NCBI GenBank assembly: GCA_038243585.1
Contig: JBBSQY010000046.1
Coordinates: 1-26,169 of the forward strand
Source: Candidatus Sumerlaeales bacterium
GTDB lineage: Bacteria; Sumerlaeota; Sumerlaeia; Sumerlaeales; Sumerlaeaceae
DNA length: 26,169 nt
Reading direction: 5' to 3'
Shown in pieces: positions 2,132 through 22,476 of the stretch (positions are counted from its first letter, which is position 1; every line of letters starts with the position of its first letter). The position numbers and the translations under genes were made by a program. The notes beneath the pieces are model-generated. The model ran no database searches. It was not told where the DNA came from and saw only the letters and a program-made list of their open reading frames with translations.

Positions 2132-4876
2132 CTAATACAGTTGCCAGTCGGCGACCTTGCTGTCGAGGACAGTGATGTAGTGCGGTTCGCGGCCGGTGAC
2201 GCCGTCGTTGGGATCGGCGGCGAAGATTAGCTTATTTCCGATTACGCCGGCGTCGCTCATTATGGCTCCGGAAGCTCGGCCTGGCGCGAAATCCTGTACC
2301 AGATTCAAGCCGCCGTCATACCCCACTGTCCTGTAAAGCTCGCGGCCCAGATCCGGGGTTGTCATGGCGAGGTACAAAAATCCTCGGACTTCAGCCAGCA
2401 TTTGCGGGGCCGCATCAGCCGGCAGTTCCGCCACCACCCGCGTGCCGGCGGCGGGTCCGTCGCTGTATATCAGCCGGCAACTGCCTGCGTGGACACCGGT
2501 GATATATACGCCGCCGTGCTGGCTGGCCCGCATGACGAATTGCTCGTCTTCATCTACCAGGGCGTTTAAAGGGGGCAGCTTAGTTGTGCCCGCCTCCGTG
2601 CCGTCTGTCGCCCAGACCGCCCATGTGCCGCCCGGCTCGTCGGCCACAAAAAACGCGCGTGCGCCGGCGCTGGTAAAACGGCGGGCGTTAGATCCCGATG
2701 CGCCGGGTACTATGTCGGCCAATAGTTTGGTTCCCGTAGACGTGCCGTCGGACAACATCGGTTCTATTCCCGCGCCGGGCATCTCCGCCCCATAGACGAT
2801 GAGTCCGCCGGGCACCTCTGCGCCTGCGGTCGGCGCGGCGATGGACTCGGAGATTTTTGCTGTTCCCTGGGCCGTGCCGTCACTTGACCATATCTCATGA
2901 GTCAGGACAGCGGTATTGGTCGTGCGGGCGTAATACAGGCCCCTTGCGCCAGCGACGCCAATGGGATGAAACGGATACTCGAGATTGGTGGGTTCAAAGG
3001 ACTGCGAGACGAAACTCGTACCTTGCGGCGTTCCGTCGCTCGTAATTAAAATCGGTTCATCTTCGAAACGCGAGCCTCCGATGAAACTGACTCCATTGAT
3101 TGTGAACAGGCGGGTAGGCGGTCTGCCGGTATGACTATCGGAACTATTAAATATTGGCTGGGGAATCGCGCCGGGCATGCCGTTGGAGAGAAAAAACTGG
3201 CCGTCGCCGTAATACCCGCCGAATCCCATTTCTTGAATTTTGTGATAGAAAAGCATTCCGTGGACGGTGCCGCCGAGCCACACCGGTTCAGTCGGCAGGA
3301 GGTCAACTGTGCCGGCCGCGGTGCCGTCGGTTCTGTAGACCTGTTCGGGGTATGTGTCCTCGTGCACTGTGTTTCGAAAAAAGCTATACTGTGCCGCTGT
3401 TTCAAAATCTCCGGGATCGCTGCTAATGGGGGTGCGGGTGAATTGAGTCAACAGATGGGAATGATAGGGATCCGCGGGATCGGATATGAAAAGCTGGTCG
3501 CTATTGCCGACAGTGGTTCCGGCTCCATATGCAATCCGCCCATCAAAGAAAGCCATGGTGTAGGAGTCCAACTGATCTCTCTGTTCAAAGCTTGCAATCA
3601 GTTGTGAGTTTGACACATCCCCGACGACAAAATAGATGGTGTTGTCGGAGTAGACATAGGTTCCGGTAGCCGTCTCGGCTTTCGCATAAATAGAACTCAT
3701 AGGCACCTCGCCGCTGCTCAATGCGGTTGGCGTGCTGACTCCGTCGCTGACCAGCAATGGACCAGGATACATCGGACCGATTCCTGTCGTTATTGTGCTA
3801 ATATAGAGTTTGCCTTCCACCCAGCATAGAGCTTTTGGCGCAAGGTCGGCATCCTCATCAAAGGGAAGCACTCCGGTTGTCAACCCATCGCTATACATAA
3901 TTTGGCCTTCGTAAGGGCTGGAAAGCCAGTAAAGGGTCGAACTGGATTCCGCATTTTCATATGGGCGATAACCAGGGAGAATTCCAGGCATGGCTTCGTC
4001 AATCAGAGTGGTTCCCGCGAAGGTTCCATCTGTTATGTGAAGAGCCACGGAGCTAGCGTCTTTCATGACGCTAAAAAAGCATTTGCCTAACGCCAATATC
4101 AAGTTGCTATTAATGTAGGAGTCGCTGGCCTGGCTGTGGAGTTGTTCTGTTCCAGCGGCTGTGCCGTCCGTTCCCCATAGAGTTACCTTCTTAAAATCTT
4201 TTTCACTAACAGCAAACAACAAGGTGTTGCCAAGCACCTTGACGGCGGTGATCTGCGGTGGGCCATAAGGAAAGCCATGGTCGTATGGGACTGGAATCTG
4301 ACGGGTAATTGTTAGTCCAGTGCTGCTGGATGCGTCCAGAAAGCCAATCTCAAAGGAATACTCGGCATAGGTGTTACGCAGAAAACAAATTTGGTTATCC
4401 GCCCCGATCCATGTGGCGATGGCGGCATTCGACTGTTTGTCAAAGGTTAGCCGGGTTACCTCGCCAGTTGCGCCGTCAAGCTCTACAAAAGAAGAAGAAT
4501 CCTCCCCTCGGGAAAACACGGCTTTTCCGTCGCGAACTACGAAGAATGGATAATCAGTTGGCGCATACCCCGAATCAAAACTGACCGGCGATCCCAAAGA
4601 AAAGCCAATCTTTTGTTCCATGTCTTGCCCATTGCTGGAGTTAATGTAGTACCGTGTGCGTTGAATGTAGTCAGAACGGCGGCCTGAAACTGTATAAAGG
4701 GTGTGGGTCGTGGGCACGATTTGCACAATGGTTCGCACGTCGTTTTGCACCAGACCCGGCTGCAGGTCTTTCAGCAACTGGATCGTCTGGGCCGCGGCGG
4801 GGACGGATAGCGCCAGTAAAACAGCAGTGACGCCTGTGCCTAATATGTAGCGAATGCCCGAATGCGTAAAACCCAT
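2132..4876 (-). CDS. Secreted beta-propeller protein with degenerate ELWxxDGT repeats; C-terminal SKVADWQLY motif
   Basis: 914 aa; signal peptide (...LLALSVPAAA-Q); repeats TLWGTDGTAAGT, LHITDGTFAGT, VYRTDGTAAGT, EIWSSDGTAQGT, EPMLSDGTSTGT, VWATDGTEAGT, GRELY. Confidence 0.85.
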   Translation of the reverse strand: MGFTHSGIRYILGTGVTAVLLALSVPAAAQTIQLLKDLQPGLVQNDVRTIVQIVPTTHTLYTVSGRRSDYIQRTRYYINSSNGQDMEQKIGFSLGSPVSFDSGYAPTDYPFFVVRDGKAVFSRGEDSSSFVELDGATGEVTRLTFDKQSNAAIATWIGADNQICFLRNTYAEYSFEIGFLDASSSTGLTITRQIPVPYDHGFPYGPPQITAVKVLGNTLLFAVSEKDFKKVTLWGTDGTAAGTEQLHSQASDSYINSNLILALGKCFFSVMKDASSVALHITDGTFAGTTLIDEAMPGILPGYRPYENAESSSTLYWLSSPYEGQIMYSDGLTTGVLPFDEDADLAPKALCWVEGKLYISTITTGIGPMYPGPLLVSDGVSTPTALSSGEVPMSSIYAKAETATGTYVYSDNTIYFVVGDVSNSQLIASFEQRDQLDSYTMAFFDGRIAYGAGTTVGNSDQLFISDPADPYHSHLLTQFTRTPISSDPGDFETAAQYSFFRNTVHEDTYPEQVYRTDGTAAGTVDLLPTEPVWLGGTVHGMLFYHKIQEMGFGGYYGDGQFFLSNGMPGAIPQPIFNSSDSHTGRPPTRLFTINGVSFIGGSRFEDEPILITSDGTPQGTSFVSQSFEPTNLEYPFHPIGVAGARGLYYARTTNTAVLTHEIWSSDGTAQGTAKISESIAAPTAGAEVPGGLIVYGAEMPGAGIEPMLSDGTSTGTKLLADIVPGASGSNARRFTSAGARAFFVADEPGGTWAVWATDGTEAGTTKLPPLNALVDEDEQFVMRASQHGGVYITGVHAGSCRLIYSDGPAAGTRVVAELPADAAPQMLAEVRGFLYLAMTTPDLGRELYRTVGYDGGLNLVQDFAPGRASGAIMSDAGVIGNKLIFAADPNDGVTGREPHYITVLDSKVADWQLY

Positions 4877-5107
4877 GACTTTAATCCCCTGATTGACTCA
4901 TCTTCTTAAACTGAGATATGGTGTGGTCCCGGATTAATCATGGTCAATAAAATTTCCGCTTTGTGCTTAGCCTGTTTGGGTCTAGTGGACTGCGGGTTTT
5001 TTTGCAGCTGCGGCGTGGCTTGGGGCACAACCCAGTTCCGTGCGTATTAATAAGAAAATTATACAATTGAGCGAGCGGCTGGTTCTAACGAATATGTACT
5101 GTTGCCT

Positions 5108-5263
5108 CGACTGGCGCTGAAGCGGTAAAAAAGCCGCGCTGAAGCGCGCTAGAAGTCTTCACAATAATCGCTACACCCCTCATAAATGAGGGTGCAAAGA
5201 GGGATCCGGCTAAAGCCGGAAATTGGTTGGTGTAGTCGTTCGTGCGTTTTGGTGAGTTGCGCC
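5108..5263. repeat. Palindromic REP/MITE-like element, copy 2
   Basis: Direct repeat of 1875-2030 with perfect hairpins cgcgcTGAAgcgcg, ccctcaTAAAtgaggg, ccggcTAAAgccgg and the shared 3' end ttttggtgagttgcgcc. Confidence 0.85.
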
Positions 5264-5341
5264 GCGTGGCCTGCCTACTGAGTTTTTATTGCGTTTTCTT
5301 ATTTGAACGTTTTGATTAATCTAACAATCATGATGAGGTGA

Positions 5342-6823
5342 ATGATGAAATTAGCTGGGTTTGAAACGGTTTTATTTTTTGGCGCACTATGGCTGCTTTG
5401 CCCCTCTGGCGCACAGTCAGCGGAGGTAACTACGGCGTCGAAACCAAATATCCTTTTTATCATTTCTGATGATCTTAATGATTGGATCGGGCCTATGAAG
5501 GGCCATCCGCAGACGAAGACTCCTAACCTGGATAAACTTGCTGCACGGGGTATGACGTTTCTTAACAACCAGTGTCCGACGCCGCTTTGTAATCCGTCGC
5601 GGGCCGCTTTCATGAGTGGTCTGAGGCCGTCTACAACTGGCATCTATAGCAATCAGCAGACGTGGATGCCTCATATCCCGCATGGTTTGTGTATCAATGA
5701 TTACATCCGAACGGTGGGCTATAAGTCGCTTGGTGCCGGCAAGATTTATCATTACCGTGACTACCGGCCTGAGGAATGGGACCAGGTGGTTTTTCATACA
5801 GATGACACCCTGCCAAGGCAGAAGGCGAATCGCAAGCCGGGCCCTTTTGGTTATCGGGAGTTCACGGAGGGTGCCCCGCAAAATCCGTTTGAGGAACAGC
5901 GAGCGGAGAGCAAGCTGGTCGATGCGCAGAGCGTTGCGTGGTGTATTGACCGCTTAGCTGATACGACGGACCCTTTCTTTATGGTCTGTGGGATTCACCG
6001 TCCTCATATTCCCTGGGATGTTCCCATAAAGTATTTTGATCAGTTTCCGCCGGAGTCGATTCAGCTGCCTGAGGTTCTGCTTACGGACCTGGACGATTTG
6101 CCACCGCAGGGAAAAAATTTCGCGGTGCAGGGGAGCAAGAATTCCTACCATGAGAAAATCCTGAAGATGGGGCTTTGGAAGGATCGGGTTCGCGCTTACC
6201 TGGCGAACGTTTCTTATGTGGACGCACGGGTAGGTGACCTCCTCGACGCACTGGCAAAGTCCCCCCATCGCGATAACACGATTATCGTTTTTGTAGGTGA
6301 CCACGGCTGGCACCTGGGGGAGAAGCAGCACTGGTCCAAGGTGACCCTGTGGAATTAGGCGGCGCGGACGCCTATGATCTGGGCTGTGCCGGGCGTCACC
6401 CCGCCGGGGTCTATTTGCGATAAGGGGGTCGACATGATGAGCCTGTATCCGACAATTTGCGAACTGGCCGGGGTGCCGATCCCAAAACATGTCGAAGGTA
6501 TCAGCATTAAGCCGTTGCTGAAAAACCCAAATGAGAAGTGGACCACGCCGGGGCTTTCCACAATGGGCAAAGGCAATCATACGCTTGTGAACGAAGACTG
6601 GCGTTATATAAGGTATGCCGATGGTACGGAGGAGCTGTATGATGAGCGCAATGACCCGAACGAATGGGTCAATGTCGCGGCCAGGCCGGAACACGCGGGT
6701 GTGATAAAGAAGTTGGCCGCGTTTCTTCCGAAAATTAACGCTGACCCAGTGGAATCAGATCCTGAGCCTGAGCGGAAAAAAAGAGGTAATGCACAGCCTG
6801 AACCGGAAGGGGAGGAGGAGTAG
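5342..6823 (+). pseudogene. Secreted formylglycine-dependent sulfatase (iduronate-2-sulfatase/choline-sulfatase-like), interrupted by one in-frame TAG at 6356-6358 (pseudogene, error or readthrough)
   Basis: KPNILFIISDDL, CNPSRAAFMSG (CxPSR), GKIYH, HRPHIPW, GDHGWHLGEK. After the TAG the same frame continues AARTP-MIWAVPG...RYIRYADGTEELYD...DPNEW (track ORFs 5342..6358 and 6374..6823 share the frame). Confidence 0.85.
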
Positions 6824-6968
6824 GGGATTGGTTGGGAGCTTTGGCTTTGAAGTTGGAATCTGGCAGGTCAGATATGGGAAATCGCCTGCTCTCAATTTTC
6901 GAGCAATAGCCTGTACAAGCGCTAAACCACCCGCTGTGGCTGCGTCTGGTTATCTCGTCCGGCTGGTA

Positions 6969-7256
6969 TTAATAAAGCGACCACGCGCTGACCGAAGAGC
7001 CAGGCTCCTCCGCTTTACCAGGAAGGAAACCGCCGGAAAGGCTATAGTCTCCGCCGGTCAGGACCTGGCCGGCGTCGGGCTGGCCTATGGACCCGACGAG
7101 ATTATAGTCGCCCCCGGAAAGTGTTCCCGCGCCAGAGTCGATAGTGCTCCAGGTAAGATCATACCCGCCACCGGATTGGGCGCGGGCAGATGACGCAGAG
7201 ATCAGGAGCATGCCCAAGAAGGCCGAGAGCAGCATAGTTTGCATTGGGGCTGGCAT
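6969..7256 (-). CDS. Small secreted Gly-rich protein (YDLTWSTIDSG...GSIGQPDAG...GGF domain) with C-terminal SSVSAWSLY motif
   Basis: 95 aa; signal peptide ending ARA-Q; start overlaps the upstream stop (TAATG at 7258-7254). Confidence 0.8.
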   Translation of the reverse strand: MPAPMQTMLLSAFLGMLLISASSARAQSGGGYDLTWSTIDSGAGTLSGGDYNLVGSIGQPDAGQVLTGGDYSLSGGFLPGKAEEPGSSVSAWSLY

Positions 7257-8107
7257 TAGTCTATCCTGATTATATCAAAGGTGGTGGAACGGTTAAAGTC
7301 GCCCTTTATCCTGGCGCCCGGCGCGGGCGAACTTACTTGTATCGAAAGTTCATCAAATGCCTGGAGCTGCAGGATTTCCACGCTCGACAATACAGTGGTG
7401 CCCGAAGGGAGAGAAGTAGTGCCGTCGGATAGACTTCTAATTGTCGAACCATTCCGCGTAATGGCAGCATTAACCGGGCCCGAAAAAGCCATATTAACGG
7501 TCAATCGGACAGAGACAACATATGTGCCCGGAGTCAATACTCTGACGCCCGAAAAGGTGTTCTGAAAGTCGTTCGAGAATTCATTAGCGGTAAACGGCGG
7601 AAACTCCGGAAAGGGATAAATATAATAATCATAGGTGAGCGACATCAACAGTTTTGGATTTACAGACGGGGCGAGCTTTGCGCGGGTGATAGCGCCGTCC
7701 TGGATTGCTTCGCTGCTTACTCCGCCAGCGGCGACAGACAATGCGACAGGGGCTGGCATCACGGCGGCGCGAGGAGCAAGGCCCATATACACCGTGTCGC
7801 CAATAGAGCGGACCATGATCTGCAGAAATCGCTGTTCGGTGCCAAATGCGCCGGCGCCAAAGTCCAGATTAACATTAAAAAGACCGTTGGTAACGGCCAC
7901 ATTAGCCAGCGTAATTGTCGTACCGACCTGGCCGGTTCCGGATGCGGAGTCGTAAATCCCAAACTCGAAGTCCTGTGGCGTTGAAACCGGGACGCCGCCT
8001 TTGATCAGGCTACCCTGGTAAGTGAAGGCCGTGCCAACAGGCGCCGCAGTCAGCGGCAACGCAGCAAGCGTCAGCGCCCCAATTAGTAACCCAATAATTT
8101 TCATCAA
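7256..8107 (-). CDS. Secreted fibre-like protein: N-terminal 'FTYQG' domain, short IQDGAITRAKLA linker, C-terminal C1q/TNF-like domain
   Basis: 283 aa; signal peptide; AFTYQGSL...FGIYDSASG...VTNGLFNVNLDFG...RFLQIMVR. The C-terminal pattern (TPGTYVVSVRL, ITRNG, ILQLQAFDELSIQV) resembles C1q-like beta-sandwiches; that domain call is inference. Confidence 0.75.
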   Translation of the reverse strand: MMKIIGLLIGALTLAALPLTAAPVGTAFTYQGSLIKGGVPVSTPQDFEFGIYDSASGTGQVGTTITLANVAVTNGLFNVNLDFGAGAFGTEQRFLQIMVRSIGDTVYMGLAPRAAVMPAPVALSVAAGGVSSEAIQDGAITRAKLAPSVNPKLLMSLTYDYYIYPFPEFPPFTANEFSNDFQNTFSGVRVLTPGTYVVSVRLTVNMAFSGPVNAAITRNGSTIRSLSDGTTSLPSGTTVLSSVEILQLQAFDELSIQVSSPAPGARIKGDFNRSTTFDIIRID

Positions 8108-8337
8108 AGAAACCAGTCAAATTTAAAAGTTAAGTGCCATTAGTAAGTGAAGGGGAAAATGTGAGGTGCAAGAAATACCTTTGTCCCTAAAAGAGATCCG
8201 TTCAGGTTTAAATGGGAATCTCTATGTTTCTCATCGATCGTATTGAGTCCTTGACGGGTCCTTAAGAATTAAACAACTTTCTCATATCGCAACGACTCAA
8301 TCTTTTGTGGTTTCAACATGGGCGAAAAGGGAAATGT

Positions 8338-9363
8338 ATGTCTTTAATAAGTGGATGTGTTTTCGGATTTTTGGTTTGGTTTTTTGTGCGGTATATCGCG
8401 ACCAGCCTCTACACGGTGAATCAAAATGAGCGGGCGGTGCGGACCCGGTTTGGTCGTGCTCAACGGGTGGGCGGGCGCTCTACGGCGGACACTCCGTTGG
8501 TTGATTCGCTCACTGAGGAGGAGCGCCGGCGCTACGCTTATCCGCAGGTTCGGGTGATTGGGCCGGGGGGGCCTTATTTCAAATGGCCCTGGGACCAGAT
8601 CCACAAGGTGAACGTTTCCACGCAAACGGTAAACATGGCGTTTGATCCTGATAACCCTCTGGCAAACGAGGGGGGGACTCTGCTGGAAGCGGTTACGAAA
8701 GATCAGCTGGACACGGGTTTGACAGGTGAGATTCGCTATCGGGTTTCGGAGCAAAATCTTTATGCTTATCTGTTTGGCGTCAAGAACCCGGTAGCGCATG
8801 TGATGGGATATTTTGTGTCGATATTGCGGGAACGGATTGCGAACTTTGAAGCTCCTAATTCCACATTAATGGCTATTAAAGATGATTCCGATGGAGAGGT
8901 TCCGGCGAGTCTTGTGGCGTCTGGAATGAGTGTCGCTGCGGGGATTTCCATCAACGATTTGCGTAAAAATCTTCGGGACATCAATGAACATATGGATCGG
9001 GAATGCGCCACCGCGCCGGCCAGGTATGGCATCGTTCTGGAAGCGTCGCTTATCACGGGTATCGATCCGCCGTCGGAGGTGGAATCTGCACTTGCCGCCA
9101 TCAATACGGCTCACAACCAGGTGTCGTCGGATATCAGCCTGGCGCATGCGGCGGCCGATCAAAAGATTGTGCAGTCGAAACGTGCGGTTGAGATTGAGAC
9201 GTTGAAAGCGCAGGCCGAGGTGGAACCGCTGCGCTGGCTGGCGACGCAACTGAAACAATTAAAAGCGGCGGGGCCTAACGCGTTGCCGTCTTATCTGCGT
9301 AATGTGCGGCTAGGCCTATTTGAAAAGGCGCGCAATGTAATCATGGAGGTGAAACAATCATGA
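8338..9363 (+). CDS. SPFH/Band 7 domain membrane protein (first of pair)
   Basis: N-terminal TM helix, YTVNQNERAVRTRFG, GPGGPYFKWPW, AVTKDQL, coiled-coil tail. ATG 8338 with AAGGG upstream is preferred over GTG 8305. Confidence 0.85.
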   Translation: MSLISGCVFGFLVWFFVRYIATSLYTVNQNERAVRTRFGRAQRVGGRSTADTPLVDSLTEEERRRYAYPQVRVIGPGGPYFKWPWDQIHKVNVSTQTVNMAFDPDNPLANEGGTLLEAVTKDQLDTGLTGEIRYRVSEQNLYAYLFGVKNPVAHVMGYFVSILRERIANFEAPNSTLMAIKDDSDGEVPASLVASGMSVAAGISINDLRKNLRDINEHMDRECATAPARYGIVLEASLITGIDPPSEVESALAAINTAHNQVSSDISLAHAAADQKIVQSKRAVEIETLKAQAEVEPLRWLATQLKQLKAAGPNALPSYLRNVRLGLFEKARNVIMEVKQS

Positions 9364-10322
9364 CTTCCGGAGATTTTCAGGGATTCATTATCGCGGCGGT
9401 AGCCACGTTTTTACTTATGTTTATCGTGGTGCCGATGATTCTCGGGGTATTCAGGCTGCTGGGGCTTTATGTGATGGTGCCAGAGGGGCGCTGTTGTGTG
9501 TATGTGCTTTTCGGCAAGGTGATCGGCATTATCAGGGAGCCGGGTCTCCATTTCCTGCCGTTCCATATTGGCACCTCGGCTTTTCTGGTACACTGGTTTG
9601 GGAAAGTCGAGACTGTGGATTTGCGTATGGATCAGGAGTACCTGCGCAGCCAGGCGGTGAACTCCGAAGAGGGCGCACCCATGGGGATTGGAATCTGGTA
9701 TGAAATGTATATCAGCGATCCGGTTGCGTACCTGTTTAAGAACGCTGATCCGCGCGGATCGCTTCGTACCAATGTGAGCAACGCCACCGTGCGCTGTCTG
9801 AGTAATATGCCGCTTTCGGAACTGTTGGAAAACCGGCACCAGATGAGCCGCACTGTGCGCACAGAAGTGAGCGAGAAGAGCGAGGAGTGGGGCTATGGGT
9901 TGGGCTCCATTTATATCCGCAAGGTGCATTTTCGCGATAAGGGTATGATCCGGCAGATCGAGGAAAAGGTGGTCAACCGGCTTCGGCAGGTGACGTCTGC
10001 CATCAGGCAGGACGGGGTGAACCAGGTGAGCATTATCGCATCTACGGCGGAGCGGGAGGCGGCGGTGGAATTCGCCAAGGCAGCGGCGGTGCGGCCGCTG
10101 GTGGTGGGCATGGCGTTGCACGAGATCGGCGAGGACAGCGAAATTCAGTCGGCGATGTTTGAGATCCTGGAGCAGCAGAAGCTGATCAAGAGCGACGCTA
10201 ACATCACGCTTATTCCGGAAAAGAGCGACGCGCTGGCCGCGCTTATCACCAGCGAAAGCCTTTCACGACCAGTGTCGCCGCAGGCGTCCCGACCGGATAG
10301 AGGTAAGCCGACGGTGGGCTGA
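9360..10322 (+). CDS. SPFH/Band 7 domain membrane protein (second of pair)
   Basis: TM helix, VLFGKVIGIIREPGLHFL, WGYGLGSIYIRKV; ATGA overlap with the upstream gene and GGAGG RBS. Confidence 0.85.
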   Translation: MTSGDFQGFIIAAVATFLLMFIVVPMILGVFRLLGLYVMVPEGRCCVYVLFGKVIGIIREPGLHFLPFHIGTSAFLVHWFGKVETVDLRMDQEYLRSQAVNSEEGAPMGIGIWYEMYISDPVAYLFKNADPRGSLRTNVSNATVRCLSNMPLSELLENRHQMSRTVRTEVSEKSEEWGYGLGSIYIRKVHFRDKGMIRQIEEKVVNRLRQVTSAIRQDGVNQVSIIASTAEREAAVEFAKAAAVRPLVVGMALHEIGEDSEIQSAMFEILEQQKLIKSDANITLIPEKSDALAALITSESLSRPVSPQASRPDRGKPTVG

Positions 10323-10402
10323 CGCGGGCGTTTGGGAGCTTATAATTTAACCCTTGAGGTCTGCGGTGGAACGACATCGCGTTGTGTTATTTTAGCTTCA
10401 AT

Positions 10403-10419
10403 TTAAAGAGCCTCTTTAA
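10403..10419. promoter_or_regulatory. Perfect 8-1-8 palindrome TTAAAGAG-C-CTCTTTAA, possible operator
   Basis: Read directly; lies about 145 bp upstream of the SOUL gene. A 1-nt spacer is too short for a hairpin loop. Confidence 0.3.
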
Positions 10420-10563
10420 GAGAATTCGCCCGCACAATGATCAAGTTAGGTGCATTGAAGCCAATCCGATGTGCTATGGTTTATTTAGTGCACCACTTGC
10501 TCGTATTCTCGAGTGTGACCAACATTAAATCCTCTGTCGTAGAGCCCCACGAAAGGTAGTCCT

Positions 10564-11253
10564 ATGGATTACGCCTCGAAACGTCTAACAAACTTGTTGG
10601 TCAAATCCGCATTGGCGATTCTCTTTATAGTACCCGGAGGAGGTATAATGGCCCAGGAAGAAGCGAAGTTCACCGTCATTAAAAAAGACGGGAACTATGA
10701 GATTCGCGAATACGCTCCGCGGGTGGTGGCTCAGACCTTTATCGATGGCTCTTTCACAGATGCTGGCAATCGTGTGTTTAACCGGTTGTTTGGGTATATA
10801 TCTGGTGAAAATTCTGGAAGTAAGAAAATTGCCATGACCGCGCCTGTCACACAGGAAACGAGCCCCGCCGGCTCGGGAGAGAAAATCGCGATGACTGCCC
10901 CCGTTACGCAGCAGGAGAAGGATGGTAAATATCGCGTCACCTTTATATTGCCTGCTAGCTATACGATGGACAATGCCCCGAGTCCCACGAATTCCGACGT
11001 CACCCTGGCAGCGGAACCTGAGACCCGCGTGGCCGCAGTCACTTACTCAGGCACATGGAGCGAAGAGAATTATGATAAGTATCTGAAGGAGCTTCAGGGC
11101 TGGATGACGTCGAACAGCCTGAAAGCCGAATCTGGTCCAATTTGGGCACGTTACAATCAGCCGTTCTCGCTGCCCCTATTGCGCCGCAACGAAATTATCA
11201 TACCGATCAAGGATGCAGACGACCAGACTTCAGGTTCACAAGCCTTGAATTAG
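10564..11253 (+). CDS. SOUL family heme-binding protein
   Basis: YEIREY, FNRLFGYISGEN, KIAMTAPV (twice), FILP, ARYNQPF...RRNEI; N-terminal hydrophobic/signal segment. Confidence 0.9.
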   Translation: MDYASKRLTNLLVKSALAILFIVPGGGIMAQEEAKFTVIKKDGNYEIREYAPRVVAQTFIDGSFTDAGNRVFNRLFGYISGENSGSKKIAMTAPVTQETSPAGSGEKIAMTAPVTQQEKDGKYRVTFILPASYTMDNAPSPTNSDVTLAAEPETRVAAVTYSGTWSEENYDKYLKELQGWMTSNSLKAESGPIWARYNQPFSLPLLRRNEIIIPIKDADDQTSGSQALN

Positions 11254-11458
11254 GTGCATTGTGGTGGTCATTTTCAGGGACATTTAATGGAGAACTATTA
11301 TCGATTCTAAACACAGCCCAATAAATGTGCAGTTCGTGTTTGACAAAAGCGGGTTGCGGTTGCGAGTTAAGAGCGCGGTGTATGATTTGCCGCTATTCTT
11401 ATCGCATAATTTCATAACGTTATCGTGCTGATTTACGCTGCGTTATCGATCGGATCGT

Positions 11459-14233
11459 ATGATGAAAGCTAGTTTAATGATGGCATGTGTGCGGAAATTT
11501 CCGACGACTCTAATCGGGATTCGTTTCGGTTCGCTTCGACTTTTAGCGCTTGCGGGGGCATTGGCTTTTTCATCAGCGGTCACGGTCGCCGGTGACGTCG
11601 GCTGGACGTGGGAGTCTGGTTCGCCTGTTGTTACTGCTTATGTTAATTATGGCGATTTGGGTGTGCCACGATCCTCGAACTCGCCTGGTGCTCGAGATGG
11701 ATCTGCCACGTGGACAGATGCCGACGGTAATCTTTGGTTATTCGGCGGATGGCTGAAAACAGAGGATGACCTGGTTTCTACGAATGATGTTTGGATGTAT
11801 AATCGGACTACGAAGTTATGGACATGGATTGCGGGTAGCAGCACACCTGAAATTGCCGGCAATTATGGCCAGGTTGGCATTGAATCTCCCGGTCGTTTTC
11901 CTGGCTCCCGTCGTGGCTCGAGCGCCTGGGTGGACAGCTCAGGGAAGGTTTGGATTTTCGGTGGTCGTGGCTTAAGTGCATCCAGACTAAACGATCTTTG
12001 GAGATTTGACCCTGTCTCTAAAAATTGGACGTGGATGAGCGGGAGCAATTCAGCAGATGCTATTGGTGTCTACAACGGAACTAATTCCGCTCATCCTGGC
12101 GCCCGCTCTTCTGCCGCCAGTTGGTTAGATGGTTCCGGCAACTTATGGTTGTTCGGCGGCGAAGGTTTCGGCACTTCGTCCGGATCGGGAGCGCTCGCCG
12201 ATTTGTGGAAATATGATCCGAGCACCGGAAATTGGACTTATGTAAAAGGGTCGTCTTCTGTATACGACGTGGCGGTGACTGGCGACCAGGGAGTGGCAGC
12301 GACTGGGAATATGCCCGGAGGTGTTACTTCAGCGATTACATGGAATGATTCCACAAGCCTTTGGTTTTACGGGGGATTTGGCAAAGTTGCCGGCGGTTAT
12401 GGGGGGTATTATGACTGGCTCAATGATCTGTGGAAATACGATATCAGTTCCGGAAACTGGACGTGGATGAAAGGCACTAATGAGCTAGGTGCAATCGGCG
12501 TCTACGGGTCCAAAGGTGTTGCCGCCGCAGCGAATCGCCCCGGATCCCGGAGCAGCAGCGCTTCTTGGGTGGACAGCGCTGGGAACTTCTGGATGTACGG
12601 AGGATATGGGTACACCGATGACTTTTCGGATTCCGGTTACTTGGCTGACACCTGGAAGTACACGCCGGGAACGAACAATTGGACATGGATGGGTGGATCC
12701 CTGGAGCTGACGGAAAAGCCGGCTTATGGAAATTTGAATGTTGCCAACGCCGGAAACAATCCAGGCTCGAGGAATACGCCGTTGAGCTGGGCAGTGCCCG
12801 GTGGTAACGGCTGGGTTTACAGTGGAGAAATATTTAACTATGACGGCACGGAGCTTTGGTGGTCGGATCTTTGGGAGTTTAATTCTGCTTCCGCTCAATG
12901 GACATGGAGGGGTGGACCGAAACCTCACTTGCCGAAGCCAGATTATGGGAGTAAGGGCATCGTCAGCTCGAGTAACCAACCGGGCGCAAGAACTGGCGCC
13001 GCAACCTGGCAAACTGCTGATGGTGATCTCTGGATGCTGGGCGGCGGAGGCATTGATACCTCGTCCACCCTCGGCCTTCTAAACGATCTATGGCGGTTCG
13101 ATCCGGACACCGGAAACTGGGTATGGGTTACAGGGAGCGAAACAGAAGGCGCTGCCGGCCGATATGGTCAGTTAAGGAACACCCAAAGTTTTAATATGCT
13201 GCCGGGCCGCAGAGATGCTGTGACGTGGACAGGCAATTCTGGCGATTTTTGGGTCTTCGGCGGCTACGCCGTGAGGGACATAGAAGGCTCTCGTGCTGAC
13301 ATTTTGCGAAACGACCTGTGGAAGTTTAATCCGGTCACCAAGTTGTGGACGTGGATGGCCGGAGGGCAGTATAATCAGGATTTGGGAGTTTACGGCACTA
13401 AGGGGGAGCCCCATAACGATAACACCCCCGGTGCCCGCGAATCCTCAGTTTCCTGGAAAGATTCGGACGGAAACCTATGGCTTTTTGGAGGGTTCGGAAC
13501 ATCTGCAACTGCACTTTTTGGTAGTTCTCTTAATGATTTATGGAAGTATAATCCGACTACAAACCAGTGGACGTGGATGCATGGCTCCAATGCTCACAAT
13601 ACGCGTGGAACGTATGGAGAAATTGGGGTTGCTGCAGTGGGCAACTCGCCCGGTGCCCGGAAGGATGCTGTTTCCTGGACTGACTTGTCCGGAAACTTCT
13701 GGTTGTTTGGCGGCTATGGTTATGCAGAATCTGGCTTTGGCGATCTAAATGATCTGTGGATGTATCAACCTTCCAGCGGTGGCGGTCCGTCCATGGGCCA
13801 ATGGACATGGGTTGCTGGCAGCAAGGTGACATATAGGGTCGCGGTTTACGGAGCTGCCGGTAGTTTCTCCCCGCTTAATACCCCAGGGGCTCGGCAGCAA
13901 TCGGCAACCTAGACAGACATCGACGGAAACCTGTGGCTCTTTGGCGGTAGACGAGAGGATGATGTTTGGAAGTTTGACACGAATCTCAGACAGTGGGCGT
14001 GGATGTACGGAACCCACGAAGAGTTCAATACGCCGGTCTATGGAGTTATTGGCGAGTTTGCTGACAACAACACCCCTGGCAATCGTTACGATGTTCAAAC
14101 ATGGTCTGGCGACGGCACCGCTTTCTGGATGTTCTCTGGCGCAGGCGCAAACGTACCGGTAACTGACGATTTGTGGACGTTCTCTACTGGGGTTGAGCCG
14201 GCCAGCGCGGCGGACTGGCAGCTTTTCGAATAG
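11459..14233 (+). pseudogene. Secreted Kelch/galactose-oxidase-like repeat protein (12 repeats), interrupted by one in-frame TAG at 13910-13912; C-terminal ASAADWQLFE motif
   Basis: Repeat unit PGAR-x-SWxDxxGNLWLFGG...LNDLWKYxP...WTW. After the TAG the frame continues TDIDGNLWLFGGRREDDVWKFDTNLRQWAW into track ORF 14003..14233. Confidence 0.85.
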
Positions 14234-14240
14234 ACATTCC

Positions 14241-14275
14241 GCAGGTGTCACGGCAAAATCTGTCGTGACACCTGC
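14241..14275 (+). terminator. Stem-loop after the Kelch-like gene
   Basis: gcaggtgtcacggca-aaatc-tgtcgtgacacctgc: 15-bp stem with one G-U, 7 bp after the final stop; no strong U-tract. Confidence 0.6.
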
Positions 14276-14626
14276 TGGGCCTTATTGAACGTGCTTGTGA
14301 TATAAAATGGGCCTTTTAAAAAGTTAAGAATACTTGTTGGGATATATCTTTTCTTCGTGGCAGCGCCGACTCCGTAGCGATATACGACCTCTCCGCCGAT
14401 CCATCCTCGGAATGAAACTGTGCCGAATTATCGGACACTAGTCAATTAGGGATTAGTAGTATTTGGGTTTCGGTTGGACAAGATGTCATCTGTTTTGTCT
14501 TGCACCTCCGGTTAGTTTCGCACTTACGTTTTGGTGACTTCCACCATCTCGACTCACTAACGGCTATGTTTTGTAGGTTGGACGATGCGGAGGTCGCCAT
14601 CCGATTAGCGAAAGCTGCCATCCAAC

Positions 14627-17425
14627 ATGACGAACATGTCTCTTGTAGCACAACGTATATCTGCCATATTAATGTCCCCTGTGCACCGGCGCAGTAATTA
14701 TCCCGCGCGGGCAAGCCTGGCGGTCCTGGGGCTAGCCATTGCCGCGATGGCTGCTGCGGCGCCTTCCCCTTATCTTATCAAGGACATCGCTCCCGGGCCG
14801 GATTTTACCCCCTATGCCATATTGGGTGATCGGGGTATGATGGGGTCCAATCTCTATTTCTCCATGGGCAATGAACTCTATGGCGACACCTTGAACTACG
14901 GTTCGGAATTGTTCAAGACTGACGGAACGGCCTCCGGCACTGTGATGGTAAAAGACATCTGGCCTGGCGTAGCGGGCAGCGCGCCTGCTGACCCTACCGA
15001 CGTAAACGGTGTGTTATTTTTTACTGCGGATGATGGCACTCACGGCCGCGAGCTTTGGAAGAGCGACGGAACATCCTCAGGCACAGAGATGGTGAAAGAC
15101 ATATTTGGAGGAGCCCAGGCTAGCGAACCGTATTACCTAACGAATCTGAATGGGACGCTGTTCTTTGTGGCCCAGACCGACACAAGCGGCGTGGAACTAT
15201 GGAAGAGCGACGGAACGTCGTCGGGCACAGTGATGGTGAAAGATATTTTGCCTGGCCCGGATAGCTCTGACCCCAGCTACGCGGTGGCAGTAAACGGTAA
15301 CCTCTTTTTTAGCGCCGCGACTGCCGATAACGGCTCTGAGCTGTGGAAGAGCGATGGAACCGACGCCGGCACCGTAATGGTGAAAGATATTAATCCGGGG
15401 ACAGCCAACAGTGAACCAGCCTACCTGGTGGTGGTGAACAACAAGGTGTTTTTTACAGCTACAGATAATATGACTGGCAACGAACTCTGGGTAAGCGACG
15501 GGACCGAGGCTGGTACGGTGATGGTGAAGGTAATCGTACAGGGACAGGGCGGTACCCCTTTGTATGATATGGTGGAAGCGGGCGGCCTGCTTTATTTTAG
15601 CGCACCCGGACCAAACGGGCGGGAACTCTGGAAAAGTGACGGAACCGAAGCCGGTACGGCGATGGTCAAAGACATCAAGGCGGGCGTAGACGGCAGCTAT
15701 CCCTACGCCCTGGTAAGTCATAATAACGTTTTATTCCTAACGGCAGATGATGGCGTGCATGGCGAAGAACTATGGATGAGCGACGGAACTGAAACTGGTA
15801 CGGTGATGGTGAGAGATATCTATCCGGATTTAAGCTCCAGCTATCCATCCGACCTGACCAGCGTCGGCGGCACGCTGTTCTTTAGAGCCATGTATCCTCA
15901 AAATAAGTATGAGGTGTGGAAAACCGATGGCACGGCAACGGGCACGGTGATGGTAAAAGATATCTATCCGCAGGAAACCAGCTATCCCGATTCCTTCAGT
16001 GCGATAAATGGTAAGCTGTTCTTCGCTGCCACTGATGAGCTCAACGGAAAAGAGACGTGGATTAGCGACGGTACCGAGACAGGAACAACCAAGCTGCTTA
16101 ACTACGCTTCCGGTCCGATGAGTTCAGAACCACGCAGCGGCTTAATGGTGGGTAGCATGTTGTATTTCATGGCGAGGGACACGTCGCAGGGATGGGCGCT
16201 CTGGAAGAGCAATGGCACCGAGGCAGGAACTCTGCTGGTTAAGAATCTCCCCGCCTACTATGAGTCCGGATTGCCGCGCCCCCGCGGTGCGATCAACGGA
16301 AACCTCCTCTTTAGAGCCGATGACGATGTAAACGGACAGGAATTATGGATCAGCGACGGCACCGAAGCTGGCACCGCATTGCTTAAGGACATCAACCCCG
16401 GCACCGATTCGGGCAGTCCATCGGAAATGGTGGACGTCAACGGCACAGCTTATTTCACTGCCCAGACCAATACGGCCGGAGAAGAACTATGGAAGACCGA
16501 CGGCACCGCAGCGGGCACCGTCATGGTAAAGGATATCAGCCCTGGCACTGACAGCTCTTATCCATCTCAATTGACCAACCTCAACGGCACGTTATACTTT
16601 GTTGCAACAGACTGGTCCCAGGGGGAGACTGCCCTGTGGAAGACCGACGGCACTGAAGCGGGCACCGTGGTGGTCTTCGGACGCGCAAGTCTGGGCGGCA
16701 CAACGCCAAATTTCAATGGAGACATGTGTAACGTCAATGGCACCCTGTATTTCAGTATGGATAACCGTGTTTCCGGATACGAACTATGGAAAAGCGACGG
16801 AACCACGACCGGAACAGTCCTGGTTAAAGACATCTACGAGGGCCTCTTCATGAGTAGTTATCCAGATATGCTGACCAATGTCAATGGCACCCTATTCTTT
16901 CAGGCAAACGATGCAAACGGCACCGAGCTATGGAAGAGCGACGGCACCCCCGAAGGTACTGTTATGGTAAAGGATATTAATGAAACAGGAGACAGTTACC
17001 CTGACGAGATGGTCGCTGCCGGCAACAAGCTCTTCTTCAGCGCGAGTGACGGAATCCATGGATACGAACTTTGGGTCAGCGATGGTTCATCGACGGGGAC
17101 CTTCTTGTTAAATGACATTGAACCCGGTTCAGAAAATGGCAATCCGAATGACCTGGTCAACGTCAATGGCACCGTTTACTTTAATGCAACTGACTCGACC
17201 CACGGTGACGAATTATGGAAGAGTGACGGCACCCCTGGAGGCACAGTACTGGTCAGCGACACCGCGCCAGGAATCATTTCTTCCCAAACGGAAATCCTCG
17301 GGTTCACCGCAAACCAACTCCTGCTGTCCGCAACCGACGGTGATTTCCTGGAAAGTGGAATCGGCGTTGAATTGTGGGGATTAATGCTGGGTGATTCCGC
17401 CGTAGCGGATTGGTCGATCTACTAA
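14627..17425 (+). CDS. Secreted ELWxxDGT repeat protein (17 repeats); C-terminal SAVADWSIY motif
   Basis: 932 aa; 17 copies of ELWKSDGT-like...GTVMVKDI; signal peptide LAVLGLAIAAMAAA. The exact start could be 14627, 14636 or 14672. Confidence 0.92.
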   Translation: MTNMSLVAQRISAILMSPVHRRSNYPARASLAVLGLAIAAMAAAAPSPYLIKDIAPGPDFTPYAILGDRGMMGSNLYFSMGNELYGDTLNYGSELFKTDGTASGTVMVKDIWPGVAGSAPADPTDVNGVLFFTADDGTHGRELWKSDGTSSGTEMVKDIFGGAQASEPYYLTNLNGTLFFVAQTDTSGVELWKSDGTSSGTVMVKDILPGPDSSDPSYAVAVNGNLFFSAATADNGSELWKSDGTDAGTVMVKDINPGTANSEPAYLVVVNNKVFFTATDNMTGNELWVSDGTEAGTVMVKVIVQGQGGTPLYDMVEAGGLLYFSAPGPNGRELWKSDGTEAGTAMVKDIKAGVDGSYPYALVSHNNVLFLTADDGVHGEELWMSDGTETGTVMVRDIYPDLSSSYPSDLTSVGGTLFFRAMYPQNKYEVWKTDGTATGTVMVKDIYPQETSYPDSFSAINGKLFFAATDELNGKETWISDGTETGTTKLLNYASGPMSSEPRSGLMVGSMLYFMARDTSQGWALWKSNGTEAGTLLVKNLPAYYESGLPRPRGAINGNLLFRADDDVNGQELWISDGTEAGTALLKDINPGTDSGSPSEMVDVNGTAYFTAQTNTAGEELWKTDGTAAGTVMVKDISPGTDSSYPSQLTNLNGTLYFVATDWSQGETALWKTDGTEAGTVVVFGRASLGGTTPNFNGDMCNVNGTLYFSMDNRVSGYELWKSDGTTTGTVLVKDIYEGLFMSSYPDMLTNVNGTLFFQANDANGTELWKSDGTPEGTVMVKDINETGDSYPDEMVAAGNKLFFSASDGIHGYELWVSDGSSTGTFLLNDIEPGSENGNPNDLVNVNGTVYFNATDSTHGDELWKSDGTPGGTVLVSDTAPGIISSQTEILGFTANQLLLSATDGDFLESGIGVELWGLMLGDSAVADWSIY

Positions 17426-17606: not shown

Positions 17607-18230
17607 CTAAACCGTCGGTTTTTCTACCCCCCATTCTTTAAGCCTTTGTGCAATTTGATCCGTCCGGCTGCCGATTTCGGCGTAGGCTATATAGGCTTCA
17701 TCCGCCAGGGCCGCGGTGATTTCGTTTCGGCGGGCGGCGGATTCTTTTGTGATTCGGGTGGGTTTTTCCGCAAAGGGAGACAGGAACAGGATGCGTCCTT
17801 CGTTAAAGGCCGGGCGGCATTGGGCGGGAATGCGCATGCCGGTCAGGCTGCGGGCCACGCTGATGATGATCGGTTGTTTGCCCCGCAACAGAATGGCCAG
17901 GCATTCCTTTTCCATGGGAGATTGAAACCCGCTGATCACGGTGATGCCGCTGTCGCGCATGCGGCGGGCGGCTTGGTGGGTTCGAAGGATTGCGTCGGCC
18001 GGGCATCGGGTTGAACAGAACAGGGCGGTTTTATGGGTGTCGAGTATCTCGGGAGGGCCAAGGAGGTGCAGACGTGGCGGCGCGGCATCGCGCAGGCGAA
18101 GGGACAACTGCCCAGGCCAACGGGAATCCAGAGGTAAAAGCTCAGCAGGCGGCAGGGGCGCAACACCATGGCAGGGGCAACCTGCCCCCTGTACAGTGAT
18201 GTTGTGGCAAGCTTGCGCCCGCTGGTTCAC
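17607..18230 (-). CDS. Short DprA/Smf-like (SLOG superfamily) protein
   Basis: RWPGQL...PPRLHLLGPPEIL...ALFCSTRCP...VISGFQSPMEKECLAILLRGKQPII...RRNEITAALADEAYIAYA. Start uncertain because the first ~25 codons overlap palindromic repeat DNA. Confidence 0.75.
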   Translation of the reverse strand: MNQRAQACHNITVQGAGCPCHGVAPLPPAELLPLDSRWPGQLSLRLRDAAPPRLHLLGPPEILDTHKTALFCSTRCPADAILRTHQAARRMRDSGITVISGFQSPMEKECLAILLRGKQPIIISVARSLTGMRIPAQCRPAFNEGRILFLSPFAEKPTRITKESAARRNEITAALADEAYIAYAEIGSRTDQIAQRLKEWGVEKPTV

Positions 18231-18250
18231 GGGCTGGAAGCCCGTGCCAC
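18151..18250. repeat. Cluster of REP-like palindromes
   Basis: CACGGGC-TGGAA-GCCCGTG hairpin enclosed by GTGGCA...TGCCAC (18204-18250); GGGGCA-ACC-TGCCCC hairpin and duplicated GGCAGGGGC (18151, 18170). Confidence 0.6.
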
Positions 18251-18251
18251 T

Positions 18252-21200
18252 TCATGCGTCCGCGCTCTCGGCGTCCCGGCCCATGCGGTACTTGATGTCG
18301 TAGTTGATGATGAAGTCCAGTTCCTCGTCTGTGAAGCCGTAGTGTTTGGCGAGGACATTGTCGATTTCGTCCATGATGGGTTTGGATCTGTCCATATAAA
18401 ACTCGTCATATTCAACTGAGCCAGTTTTATAGGCATAAGTACGGCGTTTAGAATTCTTTTTCAAGTCCACCATTAGCCTATTGAATATGGAACTTAATAA
18501 CTCCAGTTGCTTCCCGCGGAGATTGCCCACGCGAAAAGTTTCAATATCTGCCGCCGTAATGTTTCTACAATTACCCTGCACAGTAAACCAAAAGTAAAAC
18601 AAAGAGCTGGCTATTATGGCACCGGTAGTTTGTGCGTCCTGGATACTATGAAAATATAGATCTTTTATGTGGTCCGTCGATCTGTCTTTAATTGGTGATT
18701 TAAAATATGGCTCAAAATCCATGGATCGGATCCAGAAAGATGGGCTTCTGTGGTAGGTTATGTGACCAGCTCCGCTCTTACGTATACTGGCTGATAATTC
18801 GGCTGGCATCTCTGTAATTTTAAATACTATTTTTGCTGCTACTTCCTCACCCGTCTTGGCAAACCACATACTGTCATTATCATTGATATTGTTGTTTTCA
18901 AAAGTGGAAATTTTAGTGTGAAAAAGGTTAGGCCTTTCAATAGAGTACCATCGTATGTAGCTAGAGGTGTTTATTTTTTTCTCAAATGTGCTTCCTTTGT
19001 TTCCAATTAATATAGCTAGACGATATTTCACGCCTGCAAACAATACAGACGGGTGAGCATCGCCACTGTAAAAAGATAGTACTATAGAATTAAAATGCTG
19101 CCTGATAAGGGAGGCAAAATTGGCCATCCGTTCAGTGGAAAACCCGCTAAGCGGTATTATTAAACCAGTGGAACCAGCAGCTGAAAGTAACGCAGTGCAA
19201 CGCTCCACGCACACGGCATATATATTTCCTGCATCTTTTGTAACGTAATTTCTAACCTCATACTCGGAAACCTTGGAGACCTCCACATACGGTGGGTTCC
19301 CAATAATGACATCAAACCCACCCGATGCCATGATGCCGTAGAACTCTGTGAACCAGTGGAACGGCTGGTGGGATTTTAGCCAGCCGGGGTATTTTTTCTG
19401 ACCGTCTTTGCGGGTGAGATCAATTCCGTAATCCTCAGCCAGGTGGCGATTCAGGACGTCTGCCAGTTCGGCCATCTGCCGTGACAGTTCCCGCTTGTGG
19501 TCGGCAGGCACGGCGCCGTCGCCTTCGGTCTGGACGCGACGGAAGTTGTCAGCCAGTTGCTGGGTGTCGGCGGCTTTGGTTTCAATTTCGGCTACCTGTT
19601 CGGAGCGGAGCATATCCGTCTCCGCCGCCTTTTGCACCTCCGCCAGGGTGGCGTAGCCTACCAGGGTGTTGCCGGCGCGGATGTTGAAATCGATATCGGG
19701 CAGAGGTTCGATGCCGAGGTTAGCTTTGGCGCGGTCTGGTTCGACCTGGGCTGCCAGCTTAAGAAAGAGGCGTAGCTTGCAGATTTCTACGGCCTCTTCC
19801 ATAATGTCGACGCCGTAGAGGTTTTTCAGGATGATGGACTTAAAAATAAAATAGGCGCGGTTTGGGTGGCCGGCGACGCGGGCCAGCAGCTCACGGAAGT
19901 CGGCCAGCTTTTCCGGGCGGTGTTTTCTACCGGACTTGTCCATATCCTCTACGAACTCTTCCATACGCTGGAGGCACTGTTCATAGATAGGTTCGAGAAT
20001 GTTAAGGGCGGCGAAGAGGAAAGCTCCGGAGCCGCAGGTGGGATCGAGAACGGTAATTTTCGTGATGGCGTGCCAGAAGGCCCGGAGCATCTCCGGGCCG
20101 CCGGCCCAGGCGACAACGTCGAGGGCAAACTGTTCGATGTCGAGGTTCAGGGTGATAAGTTCGTTGATGTCGCGGACTTCGCCGTTCTCCAGCTTCCGCC
20201 GAATTTCCTCATAGCGCTGGCGTCGGGCGATGACTTCCCGCCATATTTCTGTGGGCAGGGCAGCTCCGACGGGTGCGGGTTTGTTCCATTGTTTGCGGCG
20301 TTCGAGCAAATCCGGGGCGGCGGTATCGAAGCCGACGACAATGTTATCAGGAACGGGAAACGGTTCGGCCATGGGCGCGCCGGCGTGGACATCCCAGGTG
20401 ACGCCGTGTCGAACGGCTTTATAGATGTATTTGTCGGGATCATCGCGAAGAAGATCCCACACAGTGGGGCCGGCGGGGTTGTCGAACGCAACTTTGCATT
20501 CCTTGCGGGCGGCGTCGAAGAGATAAGGGATGATGGTGTTGCGGCCTATGTAGCCGGTTATATCTTCCTTTGTATAGTAGGCGCCCATCTGCTTCTGGTT
20601 GATGTATTTTTCGAAGATGTAGCCGAGGACGTCGGGGTTAATCTCGTTGTCATCGCCGAGGGGGCGTTCGTCCAGGTGCCAGCGCCAGCCATCGAAGAAG
20701 GCGAAGAGGCGGGCGAAGGCGGCGTTTTCCACCTGGATGGCGGCGCCGTGGGTCTCTTCGATCTGGTGCTTTTGAAAAATGCCGCCGTTCAGATAAGGGA
20801 TCTTGCCGCGGTATTCGGCGGGGCGGGCGGGGTCGTCTTCGGCCAGGGCGAACCCCTGGAAGAAGAGGGGGCAGAGGAAGTCGCGGTAGTAATTGCCCTG
20901 GAAGGTTTCGAGGTGCTCCTGGAGAAACCGCAGGCGGCCGTCGAGAAAGCCCTTCGCCTGGAGGAAGTAAAGAAACATGACGCGGTTAATAAGCACGGCG
21001 GCATACCAGCGCTGGAGTTCGTCATCGGGTATGCCCTGGATGAAGGCCTGGAAAGCTTTCTGCTCGATTTGGAATCGGCTGTAAAACTTCTTGGTGAGTT
21101 TGTCTTTGTCGAAGGCATCTTTAAGGCGGCGAACGGCGCCAAGGAGATCAATGGATTCTTCGTCGTTCAGGGTGAAGGTGATGGACTGGAGGTTTTGAAT

Positions 21201-21584: not shown

Positions 21585-21648
21585 TTGTCGTGCGCGCCTC
21601 TTCCAGTGAATCAATTCATTCGTATAGGTTAAATAGGTTTGTAACTTT

Positions 21649-21713
21649 GGTGACCAGTGTGGGCCGGACCTTTTTTCGACTCCGTGACTTTACGTCCCTG
21701 GCCGCCCCTTTTT
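21649..21713 (-). ncRNA. Candidate structured RNA overlapping the DUF3800 3' end
   Basis: A-tract, then GGCGGCCAG/CUGGUCACC closing stem around GAC-GUAAA-GUC and CGGA...UCCG hairpins. Folded by eye only. Confidence 0.35.
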
Positions 21714-22475: not shown

Positions 22476-22476
22476 A

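Follow-up and report, generated by a model that had tools for sequence, protein, structure and literature searches.

A nine-residue C-terminal tail on exported Sumerlaeota proteins and a PorU-like C25 peptidase as its candidate reader

Within the Porphyromonas gingivalis type IX secretion system (T9SS), many unrelated cargo proteins carry a signal peptide together with a C-terminal signal, and PorU (NF033707; structure 6za2) cuts this signal and links the cargo to an amine of lipopolysaccharide (LPS), as described in PMC4560394. The tripartite signals LPXTG, PEP-CTERM, GlyGly-CTERM and MYXO-CTERM are likewise C-terminal, number many per genome on unrelated carriers with signal peptides, and are swapped in homologues. 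The YLP-box (NF050076), a putative sorting motif of 11 positions for which our literature search found no paper, is ultrashort, C-terminal and free of a membrane helix. Here we describe a tail that shares several of these features. It was noticed in a stretch of 26,169 nucleotides from Candidatus Sumerlaeales bacterium (contig JBBSQY010000046.1 of assembly GCA_038243585.1; the window, at its full length), where nearly the same nine residues are encoded four times directly before a stop codon, with the genome-wide consensus [ST]-x-[VAI]-x-D-W-x-L-Y(-x). The tail is real and uncatalogued, very probably a minimal sorting signal, and falls outside the tripartite, T9SS C-terminal domain (CTD), YLP-box and beta-barrel assembly machinery (BAM) classes, and the proposal of a preliminary description, that exported Sumerlaeota proteins bear such a signal, is supported. 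New here is a candidate reader, a PorU-like C25 peptidase whose orthologue is missing from one lineage that has also nearly lost the tail.

The genome holding the window (G000, a Ca. Sumerlaeaceae bin of 3.43 Mb that is 90% complete, with 2574 genes by a crude gene caller) encodes many such ends. The terminal pattern [VAIG]xxWx[LIMVAYF][YF]x? is present in 78/2574 genes against 0.53 expected from its internal rate (93 internal matches), and the pattern offered in the preliminary description yields 68 terminal matches against 0.23 expected; the motif is thus terminal rather than internal, as had been anticipated. After masking of the tail, the 78 carriers form 43 sequence clusters. The last aromatic residue is flush with the terminus in 49 of them and is followed by one residue, mostly Glu, Asp, Gln or Asn, in the other 29. 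Trp and Tyr/Phe occur in 78/78 tails, both being fixed by the search pattern, while the column five residues before Trp lies outside that pattern and holds Ser, Thr or Ala in 74/78. Position -4 from Trp is Ala, Ser, Gly or Asp in 61/78, position -3 is Val, Ala or Ile in 78/78, and position -1 is Asp in 48/78 only; after the Trp, Leu occupies position +2 in 51/78, and position +3 is Tyr in 64 and Phe in 14.

A crude signal-peptide test was positive for 63/78 carriers and for 589/2496 other genes, in line with the predicted enrichment among exported proteins; because this home-made test over-calls, the odds ratio of 13.6 (p 2e-25) is a rough guide only. Fourteen carriers received no signal-peptide call and are mostly apparent fragments or genes with wrong starts, one being an apparent chance match on a cytoplasmic enzyme; one further carrier failed through a predicted membrane segment, and a lipobox is present in one of the 78. 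No carrier (0/78) reaches a 17-residue hydropathy of 1.6 within its last 40 residues, and none (0/78) has two Lys/Arg among its last five, so the tail indeed has neither the membrane helix nor the basic end of the tripartite signals and hence is not of the type on which intramembrane sorting proteases act. None of the Pfam or NCBIfam models matches the tail. Our literature search, with most subscription journals outside its scope, found no description of it, and the term ‘C-terminal’ is absent from the main texts of PMC8092238 and PMC10866078 (Sumerlaeota) and of PMC9324843 (Hinthialibacterota). That the tail serves as a sorting signal of some kind is highly probable.

Homologues of two window carriers reveal which modules stand in its place. 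Carrier 2 is a small Gly-rich exported protein of 95 residues (6969..7256, minus strand; open reading frame (ORF) and homologue comparison). Among the best 120 of its 339 homologues, one of which is carrier 2 itself, 94/119 have a YLP-type box in the slot of the tail, and the remaining 25/119 have near-variants or longer modules at the terminus. Carrier 4 is an ELWxxDGT-repeat beta-propeller protein of 932 residues (14627..17425, plus strand; TIGR04534, 991.9 bits); the best 120 of its 7996 homologues end in a T9SS CTD (22), a YLP-type box (7), a dockerin-like module (5), the Sumerlaeota tail (1) or something else (85). The tail behaves as a sorting module. It shares its slot with the T9SS CTD in ELWxxDGT proteins and with the YLP-box on the 95-residue domain, but it comprises nine residues where the CTD is a folded domain of 50–110, and the YLP-box differs from it in having a basic end and no Trp. 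NF050076 gave no match to 6 tail pieces and 14 tails at E values up to 10, and weakly matches one of two YLP-type carrier 2 homologues scanned. The sorting-signal criteria numbered 1, 2, 6, 7 and 8 in bioRxiv 10.1101/2023.06.07.544157 fit the tail, with the conservation of Trp and Tyr/Phe fixed by the pattern, and those for a helix and a basic cluster do not.

A structural model of carrier 4 (mean predicted local distance difference test (pLDDT) 88) places the last propeller strand at residues 915–920 and leaves the tail (924–932) unstructured with pLDDT < 50; part of this low confidence is to be expected, as the tail is missing from every other row of the alignment. The earlier view that the tail lies outside the repeat domain is thus borne out for this carrier. 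A fold search with the model returned generic multi-propeller matches only.

The tail ranges widely across the phylum. A strict DNA pattern has matches in 42/75 phylum genomes (28 matches in G000, control 0), and a pattern with one extra residue in 66/75, with a background of 0–4 per genome. Neither is found in 7/75 genomes, among which G005 and G031 show variants without Asp (DNA matches only, from a looser search of 14 genomes). The strict pattern had given the impression that whole families lack the tail, which is mostly an artefact, variants with an extra residue or without Asp being present. A terminal Glu is favoured in G010 and G011. The pattern matched 14 times, and the control 22 times, in 151 genomes of the phylum to which a Bacteroidales record belongs.

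As in the PorU/T9SS system, the Sumerlaeaceae genome encodes a cysteine peptidase of family C25 whose N-terminal domains resemble those of PorU. The Peptidase C25 model detects three genes, on contigs C8, C5 and C49, all outside the window, whose products have signal-peptide-like starts, an intact His/Cys pair and no tail; unlike PorU, these are three paralogues, two of them with CARDB domains, and cleavage by them is a proposal. An alignment of 101 C8-enzyme orthologues shows no variation at His900 and Cys939, and a profile of these 101 sequences finds PorU as the best match among solved structures (6za2, E 3e-40, N-terminal domains included), followed by gingipain (5e-21). Across 150 homologues, the His/Cys pair is kept in 147 and the tail occurs in none. 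The named close C25 relatives are all Sumerlaeota, and atlas searches turned up nothing beyond C25 clusters and weak leads; profiles of the C49-type enzyme and of a TPR neighbour were uninformative outside the family (thresholds or divergence). Gene neighbours of the C25 genes lean towards glycans: 4/6 loci of the second C25 have an O-antigen-ligase-like gene nearby, and 3/14 loci of the first (all one family) have an adjacent GT4 glycosyltransferase; both are also seen in G000.

C25 is present in 73/75 phylum genomes and a C8 orthologue in 69/75, including 42/43 good ones. Four of the six genomes without the C8 orthologue are 58–72% complete; the others, G068 and G069, belong to one genus. 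G069 is the sole good genome lacking it, and its single C25 is gingipain-like with added sugar-binding-type domains. In this closed genome, 0/478 genes (800 kb of 6 Mb) end in W..[YF], compared with 86/2367 in G000 (p 2e-7), and genome-wide only 1/30 checked loose matches (31 found) ends a real gene. Its sister G068 has no tail in 15 checked of 16 loose matches. Of four profiled candidates, the C8-type C25 alone was lost in G068/G069, while GspD, a 1692-residue TPR secretin and the pseudopilin family were retained. We note that G069 encodes five large extracellular-like ORFs of 753–3640 residues with a common, different C-terminal module (L247 6582-15266, L248 8961-18596, L254 1270-12192, and L258). 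Pfam gave no match to this module in the two ORFs scanned. The ORFs may simply be paralogues, or the module may have replaced the signal in this lineage, which lost the tail.

The first five residues of the tail resemble PorU cleavage sites of the form X/(GSA)(VLI)xD. Table 2 of PMC4560394 lists 17 such sites (e.g., T/SIADV and D/SVEDI; consensus X/(GSA)(VLI)), from which a P1–P4' profile was built and scored on the 78 tails in 25 registers. With P1 placed five residues ahead of Trp, the tails score +1.8; the 24 alternative registers give values from -4.3 to -8.4. Over four columns outside the search pattern, the tails reach +1.3, against -5.1 for 1068 internal look-alikes.

Taken as a whole, these observations point to the tail as a minimal sorting signal that a T9SS-independent, PorU-like C25 transpeptidase cleaves, joining the carrier to a surface glycan, a reading to which we assign a probability of roughly 0.45. 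Most likely, the tail works like the attachment step of T9SS, the folded domain having shrunk to a peptide. Carriers would be exported by Sec via their signal peptides (a crude prediction), fold in the periplasm and then pass the outer membrane; the likeliest exit is a type II-type secretin, genes for which exist. The W-x-L-Y end would then dock in a pocket of the peptidase. Cleavage would follow the conserved Ser/Thr/Ala five residues before Trp, so that the leaving piece would start with [ASG]-[VAI]-x-D-W, like the pieces removed by PorU, as the motif fit suggests. By analogy with PorU, the C25 enzyme might finally transfer the new C-terminus to an amine on LPS or on some other surface glycan. 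For the statement that a C25 enzyme reads the tail, the odds are a little short of even. Recognition for export and transpeptidation are not mutually exclusive.

Several findings weigh against this assignment. The joint loss of C25 and tail is a single lineage, two genomes of one genus, and within it one CotH-domain protein of G069 still has a tail-like terminus (1/30 loci). Conversely, G067 retains two PorU-like enzymes and yet has 1 clear tail in 537 genes, and G039 has six C25 matches and a strict tail in 0/10 golvesin-domain proteins with a visible end. In family f4 (G005 and G006), the variant A-[QR]-[HR]-W-E-[LI]-Y-R is basic and has no Asp (DNA matches, not ORFs). The C25 proteins score 160–185 bits against a PorU (NF033707) cut-off of 420, and 118–178 against a cut-off of 450 for NF052324. 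The Arg located 32 residues after the catalytic Cys, a conserved PorU feature according to PMC4560394, has no aligned Arg counterpart in the C49 enzyme or in the C8-group consensus. Tail genes seldom adjoin C25 genes (4/21 loci hold one). The [GSA][VLI] motif is of low complexity, with a fit in 33/78 tails by the strict and 46/78 by the relaxed form, and although the native order is the best of 24 column shuffles, it scores 1.34 against 1.14 only; because shuffled columns reach 1.14, the fit to PorU sites is suggestive and much of it compositional. According to PMC4804311 and PMC11285876, PorU cleavage does not depend on a sequence but on a folded CTD, and the C25 enzymes would therefore have to recognize the W-x-L-Y cap instead. 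A predicted complex of the C8 peptidase, in two parts, with the tail scored 0.02 and constitutes no evidence for or against. The assignment to C25 has two supports, a single lineage of co-loss and a motif of low complexity.

The T9SS translocon is also missing from view. In G000, at 90% completeness, PorV family members were not found although positive controls were detected; SprA was not found and the CTD model (TIGR04183) gave no match there, the control genomes being silent for both, and the CTD model gave none on the carriers. Another route across the outer membrane is therefore needed, which favours an explanation in which the tail acts, uncleaved, as an export signal for the type II/type IV pilus machinery, e.g., for GspG-like pseudopilins that select folded cargo for the secretin. 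G000 has three secretins and a gsp cluster, and 9/78 tail genes adjoin a pilin-like gene compared with 17/581 other signal-peptide genes (p 0.002; controls from the crude predictor). The remaining 69/78 carriers, all four in the window included, have no adjacent pilin gene, however, and the paralogue family occurs in 75/75 genomes, with 28 copies in the nearly tail-free G069, where GspD and the giant secretin are retained as well. We consider this explanation unlikely. The giant secretin, GspD and the pseudopilin family were rejected as tail-specific readers, none being lost with the tail in G068 and G069 (17–28 pseudopilin paralogues kept). Thus, of the dedicated translocon or anchoring machinery envisaged in the preliminary description, no translocon was found and the tested secretins do not track the tail, while the peptidase class yields the PorU-like candidate. 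As separate observations, the 1692-residue secretin with TPR and long linkers (G000:C32:28553-33631, L013) lies outside pilus operons and occurs in 69/75 phylum genomes, and the GspG-like pseudopilin paralogues (e.g., L028 and L029), with one conserved N-terminal motif, number 10–129 copies per genome in 75/75 genomes.

Equally doubtful is a role as a never-cut, non-covalent docking peptide for a surface scaffold or chaperone, in the manner of dockerin and cohesin. A pocket could well receive an invariant Trp and a terminal aromatic, the terminus tolerates one added residue, and the exchanges with the YLP-box in carrier 2 homologues and with dockerin-like and YLP-type ends in ELWxxDGT homologues, within the subsets given above, fit such a role. 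Against it, no scaffold was identified, and docking leaves unexplained the small residue five before Trp, the PorU-site fit and the joint loss with C25.

The BAM beta-signal consists of alternating hydrophobic residues with a terminal aromatic and lies on a beta-barrel. The tail resembles it in its terminal aromatic, at or beside the C-terminus, and BamA is encoded in the genome; the preliminary description had suggested possible beta-strand augmentation of this kind. The hydrophobic positions of the tail, counted from the last aromatic, are 0, -1, -3 and -6 and do not alternate, 29/78 tails extend past the aromatic, and the scanned carriers are propeller, enzyme or binding-domain proteins rather than barrels, so that suggestion is not supported. 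In homologues, modules for export or anchoring stand where the tail does. A PDZ-type C-terminal ligand in the periplasm (a tag for quality control or degradation) fares no better, and either role is improbable. Two BamA genes were seen that share a neighbour and are nearly identical at their ends (G000:C2:113547-116213 and, on a 4-kb contig, C95:389-2959), possibly reflecting a second strain in the bin. A structural closing strand or chance can be dismissed almost entirely: the low model confidence at the tail has the partial explanation given above, but the excess of terminal matches over 0.53 expected, the 43 unrelated clusters, the other modules at the same point in homologues, the end of the last propeller strand at 920 and the 14 versus 22 control matches in the other phylum all speak against them.

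A nine-residue signal on ~3% of the proteome would be one of the smallest known for surface sorting. It labels the set of enzymes exported by an uncultured phylum that is widespread. Its pairing with a soluble PorU-like enzyme makes an orphan tag assayable by peptide cleavage, with no cultured host needed. The outcome would bear on the choice of cut sites by PorU-type enzymes and on the reason for the presence of C25 in lineages without type IX secretion; if a C25 enzyme reads the tail, this would be a way of anchoring proteins at the surface that dispenses with the customary type IX machinery and might yield a new protein-ligation tool. More speculatively, PorU-family transpeptidases could be general sortases for ultrashort C-terminal tags outside T9SS, with the nine-residue tag combining a cleavage site and an aromatic cap, exit through a type II-type secretin, and attachment to a surface glycan. 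The YLP-box and other swapping orphan tails may follow this logic too, and the cleavage motif may be an ancestral core to which the folded T9SS domain was later joined; we regard this extension as tentative.

In the window itself, translation matched exactly for all four peptides at their previously reported positions and strands, each followed by a stop. Tail 1 (SKVADWQLY, 2132..2161, minus strand) ends carrier 1, an ELWxxDGT-repeat protein of 914 residues with a signal peptide (2132..4876, minus strand; TIGR04534, 128.9 bits against a cut-off of 65). Tail 2 (SSVSAWSLY, 6969..6998, minus strand) ends carrier 2, and tail 4 (SAVADWSIY, 17396..17425, plus strand) forms residues 924–932 of carrier 4. 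Tail 3 (ASAADWQLFE, 14201..14233, plus strand) belongs to carrier 3, a Kelch-repeat gene identified by family-library match (11459..14233, plus strand), and is not reached by the assembled product: the ORF 11459-13912 ends at an in-frame TAG within a Kelch repeat (13910-13912, plus strand), and the tail follows in frame 106 codons later. The claim of four secreted proteins ending in the tail therefore stands for carriers 1, 2 and 4, three of four products being tailed as assembled, and fails for the Kelch product. The same TAG is present in a second assembly (contigs of run X1, probably from the same reads and hence not independent; no RNA run was listed as containing the sequence), and a Kelch paralogue on contig C31 is intact, with 915 residues and the tail at its terminus. 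A sulfatase gene (5342-6823, plus strand) is likewise split by an in-frame TAG (6356-6358). Two in-frame TAGs within 8 kb suggest local gene decay and not recoding. Amber recoding was rejected; TAG terminates 634/2574 genes, and only 2/70 in-frame continuations, both in the window, appeared by eye to lie mid-domain. As previously stated, the sulfatase, SPFH and SOUL proteins of the window lack the tail.

Directly upstream of carrier 2 and coupled to it lies a gene for an exported protein of 283 residues without the tail (7256..8107, minus strand), which has zero Pfam or NCBIfam matches and is a possible partner displayed through carrier 2. The model of carrier 2 itself is of low confidence (mean pLDDT 56), and several of its homologues weakly match NF058579, ‘CPR-type pilus protein PamT’ (E 0.001–0.03). 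Beside the carriers, a restriction-modification-like island (window 17607-25848, minus strand) contains DprA-like, Eco57I-type methylase, DUF3800 and PLD-SNF2 helicase genes.

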